Source: Camelus dromedarius
Taxonomy: Eukaryota
Direction: 5' to 3'
DNA length: 64,000 nucleotides
Assembly (NCBI RefSeq): GCF_036321535.1
Contig: NC_087436.1
Location: 59,708,001 to 59,772,000, forward strand
Part shown: positions 3,402 through 60,627 of the stretch, piece after piece
How the letters are laid out: each line of letters begins with the position of its first letter
Numbering within the stretch: position 1 is the stretch's first letter
The notes under the pieces: generated by a model
The model's input: the letters and a program-made list of their open reading frames with translations, nothing else
Databases searched by the model: none
What the model was told of the DNA's origin: nothing
Translations under genes and position numbers: made by a program

Positions 3402-3815
3402 TGTGAAGGAAAAACCGGGCTGGGCTAACAAGATAACTCACAAGTCTAAGTATTGGAATACTGATCTGAGTTCTGCAGGACTAACTTGTAAATCTAAGTT
3501 AATTAGTGTTGGTTTGCTGTTTATGTTTTTTTGCTAGCCAGTTGGGTTTTCAAAGATACATATCTGGCTTTGGAATGTTGGTTTGCTGCCTCCCCACCTC
3601 CACTTTTGTGATGATAATGCTGCTAAAGCTGTTCCATGCCTATTGGCCTAATACCCCAAGCTTGTACTTTACCCTATAAAACCTCATGCGCACGTCTTGG
3701 AGGTGCTCAGAGCTTCGGAGCAGAAGCCCCTCTGAGCCCGCCGGCGTAATACATCTGAGTACTCCCACCCTCCGAGTGGTGCTTGTTTCTTGACTGTCCT
3801 GTCGTTTCCGTAACA
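3402..3815 (+). mobile_element. Young ERV1-type solo LTR, 414 bp
   Basis: TGTGAAGGAAA...TTTCCGTAACA termini, perfect 4-bp TSD TCAC (3398-3401 / 3816-3819), TATAAAA at 3675-3681, AATACA poly(A)-signal variant at 3748-3753, CpGs retained. Confidence 0.85.
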
Positions 3816-18068: not shown

Positions 18069-20322
18069 AAACCATTTATTTTTCCACAACCCCACACTGA
18101 TCCTAACTTTTTAATACAACTCCTAAAAATATCAAAATGAGGCTAAGTTTTTTAATTCCAACTTTACTTAATTTGTATATAAATTCTTTATTGGCATAGT
18201 TACATCTAAATTTGATATATAGTGTATAAAGATTTAAAAAGTGTATGTAGATAGAAGTGCTTTGATAATAGAAGTTAAGATATGAGAAACCCATGACAAA
18301 CTAAACTAAAATTACAGGTTATGAATTAAGAGTACAAGAACTTGGTCTAAAATGTTTTGAAATTTTCAAATTTAGGAAGTTAAGGTATAGATGTTAAGTT
18401 TAATGTCCACCTTGTCAAAATGTCACAAGTTACTTATCAGATTCAGAAACACTAGGACCTAATTTTCAATGGATCCAAGTGCATTACTTTTATGTGATTG
18501 CCACTTCTCCATGCTCCAAATTCAGTTTAACAACTTTCTTTTTAACAATATTTTTTCTTCCTTAAATTCTTAAATCATCTGTGTATTTTCTTCTTTAGGT
18601 AGAGTCTTCTTTAAAACAAACTATTTCTAAAAGTTAATTTTTCTTTTTGAACTATTCAAGATGACTATGCAAACTACATAGTACAAAAAATTAAAATGGT
18701 ACCTTGATTGTTACCTGCAAAATTTTAGAGGCTAAGAGGTCAATTTGGGTAATTCAAGTTCAAAGGAAAAAAATATTTGCACCTCATTTTACTCAGTCAA
18801 CCAACAGAGGACTTTCTGGAGGGAGTATTACTAAATTACCTTAATTATAGCTATGTAACATTGGCTCTGGGAGTAAGAATTTTCTTTTTCATTTCATACA
18901 ACAAATAAGGTCTTTTTTATTATATATGTTAAGTTTTACACCTCATCATAACTAATGTTGAAGGGGGGAAAAAAGAACATTTCTGAGTTAATTGTCCAAA
19001 ATAAGCATTCTTTAACAAAATTTTCTGCTGGGTTAAACTGATGATTTTATGCATCCATTCATAAATATCTATATATGATTTTTACTCAACTCAAAGCTTG
19101 ATTACATAAAATATATCTCTAGGGTTATGTTAAATATAGGAATGCCTTCATGTAATTGAGTTTATATTATCAATTACTTATAAAAAGTTACCCCCAGTAA
19201 TGTAAGACATGCTCCTTTTGTCTGTAATACTATTACTATTTTAAGTACTGGTTTATGGGTTTTCTAAGGAAATATGTTCATGGGACCAATAATTGGCATT
19301 AACCCAGTCAAAGGTCTGGTTTTAGTAAAAATGTTGTCAGTTGTCGAGAGTCAGTAAAATATGCTCTACATTTGTCTGCTATCTCACTAATATGTTCTCA
19401 GACGCTTGATGGCCTATAAGATCTATTTTGTCATTTAATTGTATTTAATAATTACCTAATACATCATTGTTAGTGTACTCAAATCTGAAATCAAAGAATA
19501 TTATTGATTAGGGTTTGTTTTTTGATCCTGATAAGGAGTCAGGGTCTCTTACTGTATAGTATATCTTTATTTTACTGGTATTAAGAGCTCTTGATTAATT
19601 TTTAAAGATAATTCATTGCTTTTTCATTTTTGTTTTAGACAACTCATTTTTATTTATATCCCGATTAAGTGTGTTTTCTTGCAAAATACTATTCATATAT
19701 ATAAATTGAAAATACATACCTAGAAAAGTAATGCCCCCTGCTATTCTTGTTACCTACCAAATGTGTTATGTTAGGAAAGTATGATTACATTTTTTATGAT
19801 ATCACATTAAAAAACCCTGAAAACATGAACTATACACATTTCATATTTTTTGTAAATTTTACATTTGGATTTATATATCTTTATTAACAAAAAAATCTTA
19901 TTAAGTTTATGCATTTTTGGTAGCTTTATAAAAAAGCAAAATGTTTTTGTTTGCAAAATTGAGCACTTTGCTTTATATTACATGATTGTATCTCTAGGTA
20001 TGGCAGTATGAAGTTAAATCTGGCACTTCACAAAAACGTGGGTTTAGCTTTCATAATTTGACAGGTACAACTGAAATGTCTAATTCTGGTTCAGTAATCT
20101 GTTTCTGGAATTGTACAAAGCTAAATATATACTATAAAACATTCTAATTTTCAGGTTGTCAAAACCTCATTACTGTAGGATTATAAAATTTATAATCATA
20201 GTGAATCATTAATAGTTTATAAACCATTAATAACGTTCATGTTAATAAGGTTGTTGTAGGGTTTCTAACAAATTAGCTTGCAAGGAAAATACACTTGTGT
20301 GTCAGATATTGTTCACACTTAC

Positions 20323-20406
20323 CAGTTCTTCCTGAAGTTGGGAAATGAGTTCATCCTTCTCTTTCAGTTGCAGTTTCAGCAGTGAGCATTCATCTTTCAT
20401 GATATC
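20323..20406 (-). CDS. CCSER1: Internal coding exon (84 nt, phase 0/0) of coiled-coil serine-rich protein 1
   Basis: Minus strand reads tctttttgatgtttttatAG|GAT ATC ATG AAA GAT GAA TGC TCA CTG CTG AAA CTG CAA CTG AAA GAG AAG GAT GAA CTC ATT TCC CAA CTT CAG GAA GAA CTG|GTAAGT. Acceptor and donor are canonical; 28 open codons give DIMKDECSLLKLQLKEKDELISQLQEEL with leucine heptads. The peptide matches my recollection of the CCSER1/FAM190A coiled coil; not BLAST-verified. Confidence 0.9.
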
Positions 20407-20879
20407 CTATAAAAACATCAAAAAGACAGCATAATAAATAGGCTTAGTCCTTTCACTTTGCTCTTGATAAGGAAAGTTAGCTTCACACAGCGGGAGATAA
20501 TTGCCTTTGACTAATGAAACTTATATATCCTCTAAGGTGTGGTATTTTCCACAACATACTCTATGCTATGTTGCAATACAAGCTGATGTATTCAAAGATA
20601 TTATGCTATATATAATGTCTAAACACATATTTTTTTCTGATTGACTTTTCTTTTTATTTCCCTTTGTCCATTTTGTTCCCTAAAAGAGAAGTCAAGGATT
20701 CATCTTCAATTCTGTCTTCCCATTCCTGTGCATACATAATCTGTGGAATAAAAATTAAAGGACATAATTATAACAAAATGGTATGTAAAGTTAATTATTA
20801 ATTCTCAAACCAATGGCCTTGGTATAGGCTTCATCTTTAATGATGTCTCTGCAACATGTCCCTCTCACTAGAGCTTTCT

Positions 20880-21915
20880 ATGTGGGCACTGAATCTTGTC
20901 ACTCTACATTGAACACTCAGCCACAGCCTACATGTACACAAAACATTCACGTCCATGACCTCTATTATTCTATGCTGGATAATTCTCACAGACACCTAAT
21001 CTAGACTTATCTTCTGAGATTCAACACAAATTAAACTATTTAGTGAGCATATACTCAGTACTGTCTCACAGACATTCCAACTCAAACTTTCTCAACATCT
21101 TTTTCCTACTCCAAAACTTCATTTCTATTTACTTCTCCCATCATCTTATTTCCTAAAATAACCAGAAAGTCATTGTATATTTTCAGCTTATACTCACTCT
21201 GAACCAAATCTGGTACCAAATTCTTTCATGTCTGTTTCCTTGGTATTTCTAGGACTCATCCTTCTTTATTCCTCATTGATTTACTCTAGGTATCCACTGC
21301 TTCTTATGTTACTACAGTAAGACTCTAAATGATTCTGTGTCTATCCCTTTCCCTATCTGCCAGAGATATTTTCCTAAATGAGAATTACATCATTTCTTTT
21401 TTGTATAGTTTCTCAATACAGTTAATCATATATAGTATATTCTTTACTACAGCACACAGTGCCTTTCATTATCAGCTATTGCTTGTTTCTGGAGCGTCAG
21501 TTTTTCATTTAGTTTTCTTACAAACTTGTGCTCATCCCCACAGAACCGAGATGCAGAATGTTGCTTTGTGTCTCCTTGCTTCACACATGCACATTTCTGG
21601 GTTATACTGCCTTCTACCCACTGCGTCCCTCTATCCCCCAATTTCTCAGGATTTAGGAGGTATTTCAAGCATCATTCCTTTTTCCAGGAGGGAGCTTTCC
21701 TTTGTTGGCTGAGTTATGTTTCCCTTGAGGGTGAGGGCATGCTCCACTGCATCTAAATCATGTATCATTTCATACAATACTAATACTTCAAGTGCCATTT
21801 GCTTGTTTCCCAGCCTCATTAGACTAGTCCCCCACCCCCACCGCTTGAGCAGACAGACTTTCATTAGCATATTACCAGTACCAAGCATTGCAAATGACAC
21901 ACATTAAGATATTCA
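20880..21915 (+). mobile_element. L2 LINE relic
   Basis: Pyrimidine-rich L2 3'-region text (ctagacttatcttctgagattcaacac...ctcacagacattccaactcaaac...attagactag...ttgagcagacagact). Confidence 0.6.
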
Positions 21916-22384
21916 AGTCCACATTTGCTTCCGATAAAATTACCAAATAAACAGTATAAACACTAGGGAGAATTCCCATTTTTTTCTAAATGGGGTAACT
22001 TTACCTAAGTTGACAAGGAAGAAAATAGCTAACGAATTACAGAAGACAGTATTTGTTTATTCTGCTTCTCAGGGTGTTAAGTTTCTACTCCCTCTACTAA
22101 GCAATACAGAACACATGATTCAAATTAATGCCGTCTTTCATTTGCGGACAGACAGCTGACTGGGAGACGCTAATTATCTGTTCCTTTTATTTTGCAGCAG
22201 CCCTATTTCTTCCCTAAATCATGGGCCTTAGTAGGTAGAGCTTTTTAGTGTTTGTTTTCATAGATTCTAAATTTAAATGTAACAATTTACCAAGTTATTG
22301 GTGAAAAGGCTTAGCCTGCTCCACAAGGCAAAGAAAATACAGTAGACTTAAAAGGTAGGTAAGAAAACAATCATGTCTCTTAGA

Positions 22385-22520
22385 ATCAGAGACATCTAGG
22401 GTCAAATCCTCGTTACTTTACCTCCCTCTGCTGTTTTGAGCTAATTAATGAACTTCTTTGGGCCCCCTGGACATTACTGTGGAAGTTGACGGTAACTCCA
22501 GACTATAAACTAACCAGTAA
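22385..22520 (+). mobile_element. MIR fragment
   Basis: agaatcagagacatctagggtcaaatcctc...tgctgttttgagctaattaatgaacttctttgggcc. Confidence 0.5.
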
Positions 22521-22611
22521 CAATAACGCTACTGTATTAGTACTTATATTCACAAAGTCATGCTTAATATCGCACTTAAGAAAAACTACCTCCCTTCATA
22601 AATTACAATGT

Positions 22612-23055
22612 TGTCACAGGTTGGGTTCTGTAGGAAACAAAAAACTGAGGTAGAGTTAAGGGTACAAAAGATTTATTAAAGAGTAAATCCGCATGAAAAG
22701 AAAAGTAAAAGAATAAGAACTGGTCAGGGAAACAGTGGGCCGTGACTCCTACCTGACGAAACCGCCGCCGCCAGCTAACCGAGGCGCGCCAACAGCAAGG
22801 CCGCCCGTGAGAGGAATACCGCGAGAAGGGAAGTGGGCGGGCCTTTGTGCCACCCGCTGCACAGTCATTGGTTGGGAGCTGCCTCGAGAAGAACTAGATC
22901 TCAGCTGCAGTTACTCAATTCATTGCTTCGACCCACCCAGAGACGAGCTGAGGCAGGCCCTAAAGGCACTAACAGCTGAAGGCAGTCAGCTACCCGCAGG
23001 ACTTGCAGCTGGGTAGTAAGTCCTTTATTGAAAGGGGATCTGAGCCTCAGCCTGA
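22612..23055 (-). mobile_element. ERVL LTR16-like solo LTR, unusually CpG-rich, sense to CCSER1
   Basis: Hallmarks recalled from LTR16: tgtcacaggttgggttc..., gggcctttgtgcc, cagtcattggttgggagctgcc, taacagctgaaggcagtcagc, cagctggg...aagtcctt...gaaaggggatctg. About 20 CpGs counted in 22690-23070. Confidence 0.75.
22753..22875 (-). promoter_or_regulatory. Putative LTR-derived internal promoter and short first exon
   Basis: Minus strand: CCAAT (22871-22867), eroded TATA position (~22843-22849), GC boxes (22835-22841, 22801-22806), 14 CpGs in 22741-22860, splice donor CAG|GTAGGA at 22753/22752. Confidence 0.4.
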
Positions 23056-23287
23056 ACCTACTCCGATTGTTATTTGACAATTAATAACCAATAGTTTTTT
23101 GTATATTAATTAGTAAATATGTTGTTAATTAATTAGTTTAAAATGAAGATTTACCTATATCATGGCTAATAGGAATTGAAAGAAACTTGCTCTTCCAAAA
23201 ACATGCTCACTTTCCACAATTCTCTGATTTCCTCCCCCCTCACTCACACCCCGGGAAGCTTTTTCAAGAAGTTCATAATCTCACACC

Positions 23288-23451
23288 TTTTTTTTTTTTT
23301 AATTTTTTTTTAATTTATTACTTTTTTTGTTGAGGGAGGAGACAATTAGGTTTAATCATTTATTTATTTTTAGAGGAGGTACTGGGGATTGAACCCAGGA
23401 CCTTGTACATGCTACACATGCACTCTACCACTTGAGCTATCCTCTCCCCCC
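23288..23451 (-). mobile_element. tRNA-Ala-derived SINE (camelid type)
   Basis: Reverse complement starts ggggggagaggATAGCTCAAGTGGtagagtgcatgtgtagcatgtacaaggtcctgGGTTCAATCCccagtacctcc (Pol III A and B boxes), followed by an AT-rich segment and poly(A). Confidence 0.9.
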
Positions 23452-23779
23452 TTATGAGCTCACAGCCTTAAATCAGGTTGGTGCTGATATATCATTTGTA
23501 CTTATTTATGGAATAACACATATTAAATATTTATCATATGTCATCAGAAGCCAATTTATAAAAACCTCTATGAATGATTTTGCAGATGAATCTCAGTTAC
23601 CTAGAGTTTTGTTTTTAGTTGTTAAATGTATACATGGCAAAATTCAGAAGTACCTGTCTAACACACAAAATGAAAACTCTTGAACAACACTTACTCTCAA
23701 GTGAAGACGACTCTCAAATGAATTAATATGGCCTCAATATTCTCACTATATTTGCAAAATTCTGGGTGGGGCTTTGGTC

Positions 23780-23910
23780 ACCAGCTTCTCACGTTGACTG
23801 CCTGAGTTGAATCATTCCCAAATTTCTGACTTACAAAATTGTGAACAAAACAAAAGTATAGTTGTAAGCCACTAAGTTTTGAGATGATTTGTTATATAGA
23901 TCACCAGAAC
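23780..23910 (+). mobile_element. MaLR (MLT1H/I-like) 3' end
   Basis: cccaaatttctgacttacaaaattgtgaac...gttgtaagccactaagttttgagatgatttgttat...accagaac. Confidence 0.6.
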
Positions 23911-24689
23911 GTATGGACAAACTCCAAATTATTAGAATTAGAATTGGTATAAATCATGACACATTATAGTTGTACAAAAATATATACAGGTAATTTTTAA
24001 AATAAAATATTCTGTGATTTAATTTATGATATGGGGATTTAAATTATGTTCTATTTAGTGTAACTTTCAAATAGCTCATTTCATGCATTAAAGAAATATT
24101 TATGTTCTCACTGTATATCCTACTGGAGAATCAGAAATACAAATATAAAATTTCATTAAAAACTATCTTATTCTTGTACTTTTATTTTCTAAATTTGGAA
24201 AGTTAGAGCCAGAGAAATGAATATTTGGGTAATTTGCCCTAAATTCAGTTAGCTGACTCCAGTCCCATATATTCTATAATTTATTTTTGCCTGGAATTAG
24301 AATCACCTCATTATTTAAGACTTGTATGAACAGAAATCAAGTGCCAAAAAATTAAAGGCAAGTAGAGTCTGTAAATCACCTTGAAAATGATCTTATGCTG
24401 AAATTAGAAATGCAGATGAAAAAAAATCAAATAATTTCTAACTCACAAACTTCCACATAATTCCTCAGGTAAAATTATGAATATGATTCTTGGCTACCAG
24501 TTACAAAAATATATCAAAATTTGTATTGAGTCATCATGACTTTTTCTATTTATAGACTTTTCTTCTCTCTGGAGGGCTTTTCTTTATGATTTACAAGCAG
24601 TTTTCCATTCTTGTAAGTGAAAAGCTCAAAAGATTAAAAAAGTAAAGGAAACTGACAGTGTAAACAAGGACAGACTGTTACGAACAAGT

Positions 24690-24720
24690 GAAAAAAAAAA
24701 AGAGAGAGAGAGAGAAGAAA
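24690..24720. repeat. (A)n(GA)n microsatellite
   Basis: gaaaaaaaaaaagagagagagagagaagaaa. Confidence 0.8.
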
Positions 24721-26662
24721 TAGGAATGTGGTAGGAGAGGACAGCAGGGCAGAGATTAGAAAACACAATAAAGTATAATAATTGATAATGTATTTTGCTA
24801 CTCTGCCTAAATAACTGACCTCCTGTAACTCATATTAACTCAGTTTTAAAGTAGCATGCTATCTCCAACACCTGGTAGCTAGTGAAATAAATCAATGCAG
24901 GCGTATAATCATCTAAACAAGACCATAAGAGGATCTGTTTTTCAAACATTGAAAACAAATTCAATAAAAACACAACTCTAATTCTTTATTATTTAGTTTA
25001 AAATAATTGAAAAATATTTTATAAATCATTTCAGTATGAATAATTGCTAGATGATGCAATAAATTTTTTTTTTAGAAACATTCAATTAAAAACATCTAGA
25101 TTTGACTATAAAGTCACTGATTTAAGAGATGAACATTCCATTGATTTACAACAACTGTGCTTTCTTACTAAATATTGTTTTCATGGAAATAAAAAAATTT
25201 TAAGAAGGCCTAATAGGTGTTCAAAGGGTGCGCACAGTATCTTAGAAATGTATCTTTTATCATATAAATCAAATCAGGAAACCCAAGCATTATCCCTTTA
25301 CACAATGGTATACTATCTATGAATTTCAAGCAATTAAAAAGATCAGCATAATCTTTTCATTTGCAAGTGTTACTCTTAGGAAATCTTAAAACTTCTTACT
25401 AATCTCCATCACTCAAGATAATAGCAGTACTTTATATTTTTATATGGACTTAAACATTGATAAAGCACTTTTACGTACAGAATTTTTTTTTGCTGTCAGA
25501 ATCTTTTTTGACCAGTTATTGAACATTTCTAGGCTAAGTAGGGCTTTAAGAATAGAAATGAAGCAGAGAAAACAATTGTAGCAAAGGTCAAACAAAAGGA
25601 AACCATTAATAATAATACCAAGACCCTTAAATTGTGTTCATTAGCTTCTCCACAGAATTCATTGTATTTTGATGATTTTTGTAATAGTTAAAAACATTAG
25701 CCTCCACTAAGAAATTTGCTAAGATGTTACAACAGTTCCATGAGACTACGTGCTTGTCTTTTCCAAGTTGTTAGAGTCCTTTTAGATTCACCTTCTTCTA
25801 TTAATAAGAAAAAAATTGGGTTGTATAACTCTTCTAACATAATGTTCTACATCTTACTCAATTTTTCTATACAGTAAGTGGAAAGAGCATATTAACCTAA
25901 GTCATAATCCCTACAGAAGATACTTACACAAAGTTTTCACTTTTCTGTTCTTTATTTCATACAGTTATTTGGTGAAAATTGGAAACAACAAACATTTGTG
26001 TTTCATTTTCTAAAGCCTTCTTAAAATGATAGTATTTTGCAGGTAGAAGGATGAAAATCAAATTTCTCAGTGTCATAGAATGAGTTAGTAGCCATAGCAA
26101 ATTAGTTGCCTGATCTCCTAAACCCATGGGTTTCACCACCATCAATTAGGAAATATACTTAAGGCATAAATATCTTTAAAACCTCATCAACAATGAACTT
26201 CTCAATACAGAATGTCAACAAGTGATAGAGTAATACTAATTTGTCCCTTTGTACTTGCTTGATACAAAATTCTTGAAGAAATAAATATCTTTAAGAGGTC
26301 TTGAGATTATCTGAAGTCAGCACTTTTTTTTTCTCACAGAAGACAGGCACACTTGTCACATTATAGTTGTATTTCTTAAACAGGGAAAGCAACCTAGTGA
26401 TCCTTCCCACAATGCAGAATATACAAGAAAAAAAATTAATGGTTAAAAACACCCTTTTAAAAGTCCCTCTCTGTTGTGAAGTCACGTTTACTTGCTTTTC
26501 ATGAAGTTTTAGGTAAGAAGGAGGGGACATCTTACCTCCCAACATCCTGAATAAAATAAGAATTATGTTTGAGCATAACTATAAACTTTAGTTTCTGGGA
26601 AGGAAAAGCAACCAAAGACATCAAATGCATCTCCTTCCTCACCTATAAGTATGTAATACAGC

Positions 26663-30044: not shown

Positions 30045-31800
30045 CTAAGGTAGTAGAGTCAGAAAAAGCTTTCCTGAGAATGAAATGTCAAACCAGAAAC
30101 TCAATGGTCAGATGTAATTAATAAATGATAAAAGGAAGGCAAGTGTTTTCTAAGCAAATGCAGGACTGTGAGAATTTCTGGAGGCAGAGAAATCAATTGC
30201 AAGAGTTTGGGGAACACGTATTTCAGTATAATGGTGTGGAGAGCCATACACTGGCAAATAACAATTGAGAACCAAATCATAAAAGTCATTTATGTCATAA
30301 TAATAAATTCAGTTTTATTCAGAGGGCTATGGTGTATCAATAAAGAATTTTAATCCGTGAAAGGGTATAATCAGAATTCAGTTTATGCACCTTACTCTGG
30401 GTACAGTATGGAGAATGGGCTGGATGGGAGAAGACTAGAGATGGTTAGGAGTCTGTTTTACTAATCCAGGTAAGAAATCATTAGAACTTAAACTATGATG
30501 AGGCTGTGGGAGTGGATCTGAGAGCTATTTAGAAAGTGGACTCTACCAGATACATGTGGAGTAGAAGCAAAAAATGAAAGGAGAAAGTCATAGATGATGT
30601 TAGGTTTCTGGCGGGTCTACTCAGTGAACGCAAGTACTGCTCATTTCTATTGAAAACAAATACAATTTGAGGTGGGATGTCAGCCGAGGGGGGCTGAAGA
30701 GGGTTTTGAGGAAGTGAGCTACCCACCTGGAAAAATGCGCGAGGAGCTGACATAGAGCAAAACAGCATTTTATTGCAGTACCAGCAGGTGGCGCACATGG
30801 CGGGCGGCGGCAGCGGCACTCGGCACTTTCTTCTAGTTCAACAAGATGGGGCCGCCATGTGGCGCACTTGTCCTGCTTTTATCTATACTGCCCGCACGTG
30901 CGCATTGTTCATTTCTTGGTCCCTAAGGCTTACATAATGCTACTAGCGCATGCATACCTTTGCTTTTTTTTTTTTGTTTATAAAGCTTATGTAACTGGCG
31001 CATGCATATATTTACTCCTTACCAGGTGCAAGCTATTGTGAACTTTGGCCTGGGCCCCACGGCCTATTCACTTAAGGCTGGGCCCCATGGCCTACTCACT
31101 TAAGGCTGCCAAAATGGGAGAATTTAAGATAAAGAAAAGACAATAAGTTTAATTTTCAGGTTCCTTGTAACATTCAGCTGAGGAATGTTGGCTATGTTAG
31201 CATGGGCTCAGACGAGAGGGGTCTGGTCAGGAAATGAAATCTGGGAATCACCAGTACAATGATGTGGAAAAACAGTAACTGAGAGATGAAAAGAAGCAAC
31301 CGTGAAGAAAACTGAAAATGAACAAGTGGAAAATAAGGAAAGCGTGGAGTCATGGCAGGAAGGAGACGGAAATTGATGATGCTGGACACGGCGAAGATGA
31401 AGTAAAGTAAGGGTTTATCGACAAGTTCAGTCACTGTTGTCTTTGACAAAGCAGTTTCAGGTGGTATGTTACAAGCAGAATCCAGATTACAGTGAGCTGA
31501 GAAGCAAACTGAAGATGAAGGAGAAATAAGGAGTTACCAACTATATACTTGTCAAAATGCAAGCTTCTTCCAAGAAATGAAGTCTGGTAGTTAATAGGAT
31601 TGAGAGAGTGTGTGTGTATTTCAGATGGACAAGCTTGAACAGGTTTAAAGACCAAGAATGATTCAGTAAGATGGGAGAAGTTAGAAGCACAGGTGAAAGA
31701 AGGAATAAATGAGAGAGGAAAATCCTTCAAGCATTCAGGGATAAGATCCAGTCCATAGGAGGAAATGCTAGTTTTCAGGAGGCAGAGAAGTACCCGTGAA
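30045..31800 (-). mobile_element. L2 relic split by the LTR at 30678-31114
   Basis: Purine-rich reverse-L2 text on both sides (gtcagaaaaagctttcctgag...ggttaggagtctgttttactaatccaggtaagaaat...; gtctttgacaaagcagtttcaggtgg...ccagattacagtgagctgag). Confidence 0.65.
30678..31114 (-). mobile_element. Young CpG-rich solo LTR, sense to CCSER1
   Basis: 5-bp TSD TGGGA (30673-30677 / 31115-31119); termini tgtcagcc...ggctgccaaaa; minus-strand TATA-like TATAGATAAAA (~30887-30877) upstream of AATAAA (30774-30769); 28-bp tandem duplication at 31050-31105. Confidence 0.8.
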
Positions 31801-60498: not shown

Positions 60499-60627
60499 TC
60501 TTTTGGCTTGTTTTGTTTGTGTTATGAGAGGGTGATAATTGGGTTTATTCATTTATTTCTATTTGGAGGATTAAACCTGGGACCTCGTGCATGTCAAGCA
60601 TGCGCTCTTACCACTTGAGCTATACCC
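60499..60627 (-). mobile_element. tRNA-Ala-derived SINE (camelid type) with perfect long TSD
   Basis: Reverse complement gggTATAGCTCAAGTGGtaagagcgcatgcttgacatgcacgaggtcccaGGTTTAATCC; TSD TTGCAACTAGTTCCCTTG at 60481-60498 and 60628-60645. Confidence 0.9.

Follow-up and report, generated by a model that had tools for sequence, protein, structure and literature searches.

A putative internal promoter for a short CCSER1 isoform in an old LTR-like element of intron 7

Germline promoters borrowed from LTRs include those of the MT-C Dicer1o and MT2B2 Cdk2ap1 isoforms. The closest described relative of the locus reported here is ALK-ATI, in which a sense-oriented solo LTR16B2 in ALK intron 19 serves as a promoter and an N-truncated kinase is made (PMC5134097). 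An intronic LTR16A1 likewise starts a truncated ACE2 isoform, which is interferon-induced in epithelia, has a novel N-terminus and yielded no detected protein in the work described (bioRxiv 2020.07.24.219139). Where LTR16 elements have been dated in these two reports, they are older than 70 My (PMC5134097, bioRxiv 2020.07.24.219139). MLT1F1-SRPK2 and other testis-specific promoters derived from transposable elements are described as shared by pig, human and mouse (PMC10839656). The class of mechanism is already known from other genes, and the CCSER1 locus described here is proposed as a further case of it.

We analysed a 64-kb window (the whole stretch of DNA under study) that holds a solo-LTR-like element in sense orientation in CCSER1 intron 7. 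We favour, with moderate confidence, the reading that this element is a promoter, hypomethylated in the germ line, that gives a short isoform consisting of the exon 8-9 coil plus an LC8 site. Like ALK-ATI, this would be an ancient, intronic, sense-oriented solo LTR of the ERVL LTR16 type with an internal start, an in-frame ATG in the next exon and an N-truncated protein. However, the ALK element is described as transcribing into exon 20, whereas the CCSER1 element needs an LTR-internal donor spliced across 2.35 kb; ALK-ATI is also chiefly a tumour event with a mapped start site, whereas the CCSER1 case is read from sequence, its CpGs suggesting use in the normal germ line (comparison with the description in PMC5134097). 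LTR16A1-ACE2 shares the intronic LTR16-type promoter, the in-frame splice to a downstream exon and the N-truncated product, but the ACE2 form gains a novel N-terminus (as described in bioRxiv 2020.07.24.219139), whereas the CCSER1 first exon would be non-coding. MLT1F1-SRPK2, Dicer1o and Cdk2ap1 share an old class III LTR, use as an alternative promoter in the germ line and an LTR-internal donor; they differ in LTR family and come with junction and chromatin data, whereas the CCSER1 case is built from the DNA sequence.

The element spans 22612..23065 on the minus strand (454 bp); both this size and its ending suit a solo LTR, which typically has some 450 bp and finishes in CA close to a polyA signal. 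Its 3′ end is TGTGACA at 22612, and the polyA signal AATAAA (22672..22677, minus strand) lies 60-65 nt ahead of that end. A candidate 5-bp target-site duplication flanks it, with ACAAT in the left copy (23066..23070, minus strand) and ACATT in the right copy (22607..22611, minus strand), so that 4/5 bases agree with one mismatch. Since 23070-23066 pairs with 22611-22607 in this way, the 5′ end of the element is most likely 23065; a preliminary description of this DNA had given the span as 22612-23070, of which the 22612 end stood and the other end moved inward. The layout is that of a sense-oriented solo LTR (CCAAT, GC boxes, donor, AATAAA, TGTGACA, duplication), and from the CCAAT box through the GC boxes and the polyA signal to the CA end, its motifs lie on the CCSER1 strand or are symmetric.

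The element also carries signs of age: the duplication is mismatched, the 5′ terminus is gone and there is no TATA match. The canonical LTR 5′ terminal dinucleotide is absent at the 5′ end that the duplication implies, which is the erosion expected in an old copy and says more about where the element ends and how old it is than about its family. By resemblance we take the element at 22612-23065 to belong to LTR16/ERVL, and it presumably has the age that this assignment implies. The 64-kb window holds no second copy of the element, and a metagenome motif scan for further copies gave 48 loci, of which 0/48 were homologous beyond the motif.

The CpG content of the element is its most unusual property. 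We counted 20 CpGs in 22612-23070, with 14 of them in a core at 22741..22860 (GC 0.675, O/E 1.03), in a window whose overall O/E is 0.15; these are exactly the counts that the preliminary description had given for a CpG-poor window. Against the 1.9 CpGs expected for the core at the background O/E of 0.136, 14 has a Poisson P of ~1e-8, and no 120-bp stretch of the 64 kb is richer in CpGs than the core. The excess is confined within the element (O/E 0.35 in the 5′ part, 1.03 in the core, 0.28 in the 3′ part and 0.64 for the whole) and extends past its 3′ end, into a CpG 'shadow' of non-LTR intron DNA at 21612..22611, downstream on the CCSER1 strand. We found 7 CpGs in 22112-22611 against 2.3 expected (P 0.010, post hoc, five flank intervals tried) and 11 CpGs in the 1 kb downstream of the element (P 0.013, post hoc; 1/58 other 1-kb tiles is higher). 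The 500 bp upstream of the element hold 1 CpG, so the flank excess is downstream only. Since this downstream-only excess occurs in DNA that is not LTR, the CpG excess is a property of the locus and not of the repeat family.

Methylated CpGs erode by deamination, and promoters active in the germ line retain an unmethylated zone that reaches downstream. Therefore, the CpG asymmetry fits a promoter on the minus strand. With the core O/E of 1.03 and the downstream shadow as proxies, the core would be unmethylated in the germ line; recurrent germline activity would keep methylation off the core and off some 1 kb of DNA downstream of it, and so spare their CpGs from deamination.

The main alternative to a promoter as the cause of the CpG asymmetry is GC-biased gene conversion. 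On this account, which we consider distinctly unlikely, there is no promoter, the CpGs were preserved or created by conversion at an old recombination hotspot, and it is by coincidence that the donor and ATG described below are present. The downstream flank is indeed GC-richer (0.37-0.39, versus 0.31 upstream and 0.34 window-wide), a short GGC run lies within the core, donor-like sites are common and the ATG was there before the LTR. Conversion should affect both sides, however, and the upstream 500 bp with their single CpG run against this; it also leaves the short protein records and the P0139 match (both below) unexplained.

The CpG argument depends on the age that we take the element to have, because the window has another LTR-like element that matches it closely in overall CpG richness (30670-31110; 17 CpGs, O/E 0.59 versus 0.64). 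A lineage-specific LTR, younger than we assume, whose CpGs have not yet decayed, has to be weighed. The O/E of that second element and a family name that we take from resemblance and not from a repeat library speak for such youth. Yet the CpGs are limited to one 120-bp part of the element (5′ O/E 0.35, 3′ 0.28), the termini and the target-site duplication are eroded, the excess reaches beyond the element and the resemblance we see is presumably to LTR16. Given further that the dated LTR16 elements of the sources above exceed 70 My in age, we hold a young element to be very improbable.

The motifs of a promoter are arranged in order along the CCSER1 strand. The CCAAT box lies at 22867..22871 (minus strand), and its last two bases start the last upstream ATG of the element (22868). 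The presumed TATA position, which we place at 22843..22850 (minus strand) from the LTR16 layout as we take it to be, is degenerate, and the element has no TATA[AT]A match. Two GC boxes of opposite orientation follow within 22801..22840 (22835-22840 on the plus strand, 22806-22801 on the minus strand); they are 2/4 of the GGGCGG hexamers of the window on both strands and are not independent of the CpG excess. Between them lie an ETS-like word (22829) and a CGCGAGA word (22820), which we name, as we do the other core motifs, by assumed resemblance. In the favoured reading, factors of the CCAAT and GC boxes would initiate transcription near 22810-22830, most likely in the germ line and with testis the favoured tissue.

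The candidate non-coding first exon would then be 22753..22820 (minus strand), its 5′ end falling at ~22810-22830, and would end at a candidate splice donor, CAG|GTAGGA (22747..22755, minus strand, cut at 22753/22752), 2.35 kb from CCSER1 exon 8. The leader is free of ATG for any start from 22867 down to the donor. Hence, each of the parts named in the preliminary description (CCAAT at 22871-22867, eroded TATA, GC boxes, an ATG-free stretch and the donor CAG|GTAGGA at 22753/22752) is present in the sequence. A start above 22868 would let the ATG of the CCAAT box open a 38-codon uORF, which is out of frame with exon 8 and whose stop overlaps the exon-8 ATG. The candidate leader folds no better than shuffled sequence (z 0.78), and an Rfam search of 19000-25000 gave no match.

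The donor matches 7/9 positions of the U1 consensus, as we take that consensus to be. As 155/3,453 minus-strand GT sites in the window score at least 7/9, the donor alone is not rare; the stricter class AG|GTRnG has 18 sites in the 64 kb, so that one donor of such quality is met in roughly every 3.6 kb. Eight acceptor-like sites lie between the donor and exon 8. Because AATAAA is 75 nt downstream of the donor, the LTR polyA signal would fall in the intron and would be removed with it when the donor at 22753 is joined to exon 8. We infer that a donor just ahead of the polyA signal is the position that a solo-LTR promoter needs for reading into a host gene.

The same polyA signal gives the other accounts of the element their footing. 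The first sees in the element an unmethylated regulatory site, either an enhancer or the promoter of an unstable or non-coding RNA, with no exon-8 mRNA or stable protein and with short transcripts that stop at the LTR polyA signal or degrade. This would account equally well for the CpG core and shadow, the AATAAA 75 nt past the donor is intact, the LTR16A1-ACE2 transcript gave no detected protein in the report cited above (bioRxiv 2020.07.24.219139), and the RNA runs that hold part of the element (below) do not reveal transcript structure. Since the spliced protein records that begin at the exon-8 Met and the P0139 extension indicate a joined message, however, we place this account on the unlikely side while giving it a real chance. 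The second is that the LTR is a cassette or terminal exon of upstream CCSER1 transcripts, its polyA signal truncating the long message, and not a promoter. The sense orientation and the intact AATAAA would suit such use, and a 7-exon CCSER1 variant with a different 3′ end is described (PMC3167148). Above the donor, however, the element has no acceptor with a good pyrimidine tract, and such use would not shield CpGs; we give it hardly any chance.

In the favoured reading the first exon would be joined to CCSER1 exon 8, which lies at 20323..20406 on the minus strand (84 nt, phase 0) and begins the C-terminal coiled coil. Its translation, 20406-20323, runs DIMKDEC...QEEL; the exon was identified by the junction peptides of Table 1 of PMC3167148, and no further exon of CCSER1 was found in the window. 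The in-frame ATG (20400-20398) carries A at both −3 and +4, and would be the first AUG of the spliced message. Both translation and position agree with the preliminary description, which had placed a CCSER1 exon with a third-codon ATG and A at −3 about 2.3 kb downstream.

The Met of exon 8 is present in coelacanth and absent in 18/47 proteins compared, including those of mouse and birds. Judged from these protein sequences, the ATG is ancestral and older than the LTR. Hence, it is no sign of co-option. Scans with the DNA of exon 8 or of exons 8 and 9 found relatives in 0/331, 0/600 and 0/91 candidate stretches from JGI metagenomes, GTDB genomes and IMG/VR, respectively. Within the intron, the DNA at 21768-21619 resembles residues 1-50 of an ab initio model of giant panda, P0009 (56%). 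Hence, this intron 7 stretch is orthologous in a carnivore.

Protein records of other species bear on whether exon 8 can begin a message. Exon 8 is spliced to exon 9 in 50 proteins, and 11/50 begin at or after the position of the exon-8 Met: two from Rousettus, eight variants on ENA contigs and P0039. The Rousettus records (KAF6430902.1 and KAF6430903.1) have 110 and 113 aa, carry no partial flag and differ in their last exons. We infer that they derive from the bat annotation described in PMC8075899, which drew on Iso-seq of Rousettus brain and testes with a floor of 100 aa for ORFs and, as described there, additionally included projections and de novo models. Fourteen further proteins start at or just after the exon-8 Met with no splice to exon 9 (unspliced reads and odd models); hence, a start at this Met is by itself cheap. 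Gene callers often choose the first convenient Met, and 5′-truncated cDNAs give the same short starts. In human and apes, the short models take the Met of exon 7 as their start and not that of exon 8.

A more specific record is P0139 (Logan), in which exon 8 is spliced to exon 9 and the extension AGRGFVSR stands ahead of the Met. The translation of the element up to the AG of the donor reads GGGGFV, versus AGRGFV in P0139, and of the 3,452 minus-strand GT sites, each read in three frames, 22752 is the sole 4/6 match to this extension. Because the match was made post hoc (about 10 proteins by 4 trims, rough chance 0.01) and the frame requires a 2-nt indel, we regard it as a good lead and not proof. 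P0139 has no relatives within its own length range.

Diverged CCSER1 variants of exon 8, or of exons 8 and 9 (P0018, P0020, P0032-P0035, P0090, P0140, P0154, P0155, P0141 and P0041), sit on many ENA and Logan contigs, up to 50 per sequence. Eight ENA variants carry private substitutions, and the same substitutions occur in P0154, an unspliced form of exon 8 and intron 8; the variants are each found with two alternative 3′ ends, and the read-through into intron 8 is homologous to intron 8 in this window. These sequences suggest that another mammal has the exon 8-9 region in many copies, either as a partial duplicate or as retrocopies; plain retrocopies were dropped as an account of the ENA variants, P0154 having identical substitutions in unspliced form. 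An ESM Atlas search with P0018 gave generic coil clusters only.

A bolder account can also be framed, which we consider unlikely. It holds that the element is an ancient germline switch found throughout the Boreoeutheria, which reduces the 1.4-Mb CCSER1 to a compact unit (LTR exon, exons 8-9 and a variable end); that the product, a minimal coil with a high-affinity LC8 site, modulates dynein and LC8 assemblies of germ cells; and that in at least one other mammal the unit of LTR exon, exon 8 and exon 9 was amplified into a separate family with many copies, as the private substitutions shared by unspliced and spliced ENA variants, each with two 3′ ends, would suggest.

In the favoured reading, the short product would lack the N-terminal three quarters of CCSER1 as well as the helix just upstream of exon 8. 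In the AlphaFold model of P0045, a C-terminal fragment from a rodent (mean pLDDT 55.7), there are two long helices, 53-79 and 102-148, with low-confidence coil outside both. Going by this model, the short form would lose helix 53-79, which precedes exon 8, and keep helix 102-148, which corresponds to exons 8-9. A homodimer prediction for the exon 8-9 coil, run without an alignment, scored 0.31 versus a mark of 0.32 and speaks neither for nor against a dimer.

At the end of helix 102-148 of P0045, where the model passes into coil, lies VDKSTQTE, a candidate LC8/DYNLL motif encoded by exon 9. Exon 9 is outside the 64-kb window, and the motif was read from relatives: VDKSTQTE occurs in 25/47 proteins and ADKSTQTE in 19/47, so that DKSTQTE preceded by V or A is found in 44/47 and agrees with the motif [D/S]K-x-[T/V/I]-Q-[T/V]-[D/E]. 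The motif is kept from coelacanth-like to mammalian records. A VDKSTQTD peptide binds DYNLL with a Kd of 0.07 uM (PMC3078936), and VDKSTQTE is one conservative residue away from this 70 nM peptide. By sequence comparison, exon 9 of relatives has a near-optimal candidate LC8-binding motif. As in the coil-plus-TQT LC8/DYNLL clients described in PMC3078936, the K-x-T-Q-T motif lies in a flexible stretch that adjoins a coiled coil; unlike for those clients, binding by CCSER1 is predicted from the exon 9 motif of relatives. The motif did not figure in the earlier description of the short protein.

That description had the short protein comprise the coiled coil and C-terminus. The exon 8-9 coil stood, and the short records end in several last exons. 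Judged from these records, which are predicted and from other species, the tail of the short form is probably variable, and one fixed 228-residue C-terminus is unlikely. The product would retain the exon 8-9 coiled coil and the adjoining VDKSTQTE motif, with variable last exons and a length of ~60-230 aa.

CCSer1 is found in Ndel1 proximity data, and its paralogue CCSer2 binds Ndel1 through its coil, residues 657-687 (both as described in bioRxiv 2024.06.13.598865); wild-type CCSER1 is described as localizing to the spindle (PMC8321653). A small LC8-bound coil may compete with full-length CCSER1 on the microtubule and dynein machinery of germ cells, or scaffold apart from it.

We searched RNA runs for 22680-22950 with 24 sampled words and found this query, whole or in part, in 17 runs from 8 studies. 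Six of the 17 contain the whole query and are probably DNA, and 11 rows that are RNA or guessed to be RNA hold 0.17-0.46 of the query words; the row with the smallest share (0.17) was left out of the evidence, and four rows at exactly 0.46 may come from a related species that contains the whole stretch. All three runs on record as RNA (3/3) are labelled 'reproductive system metagenome', a label whose base rate was not established, and two of these three, from two studies, hold at least five words. The same-species runs guessed to be RNA in the index hold next to no query words (4/4). The RNA rows with a partial query may equally be pre-mRNA or DNA. The claim that this LTR is an internal promoter for an N-truncated CCSER1 is partly supported. 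The anatomy of the element agrees with it, and the downstream-only CpG shadow, the spliced proteins that begin at the exon-8 Met, the P0139 extension and these reproductive-labelled runs favour it indirectly; the ATG is no sign of co-option, and a fixed 228-aa tail is improbable.

In the literature on CCSER1/FAM190A we found no paper on an LTR promoter or on a CCSER1 LC8 site, most subscription papers lying outside the coverage. The portion available of a pig supplement on promoters from transposable elements has no CCSER1 row, and the portions available of PMC7073462 and PMC11155191 hold nothing on the element. Genome-browser annotations could already display the LTR first exon.

If the favoured reading is true, the element would be an LTR16-type promoter of normal physiology, whereas the ALK and ACE2 truncations from LTR16 are linked to tumours or interferon. 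It would also predict a small CCSER1 isoform built from exons 8-10, those that cancers delete in frame (described in PMC3167148). Transcribing the short unit would take far less time than transcribing the whole fragile-site gene, and this would suit germ cells. The LC8 motif offers a direct and cheap functional handle on the poorly understood CCSER1 protein.

Three other repeat-like features lie in the window. The second solo-LTR-like element (30670-31110, minus strand; the 17 CpGs and O/E of 0.59 given above) has an AATAAA, a donor-like CAG|GTGGGT at 30726 and, in its 5′ end, a tandem duplication of 28 bp, and looks younger. At ~3440-3815 is a third LTR-like patch, apparently on the plus strand, with 8 CpGs in 120 bp. 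A tRNA-like SINE with a poly-A tail occupies 23324-23480 (minus strand) and is 71% similar to a copy at 60516-60623.
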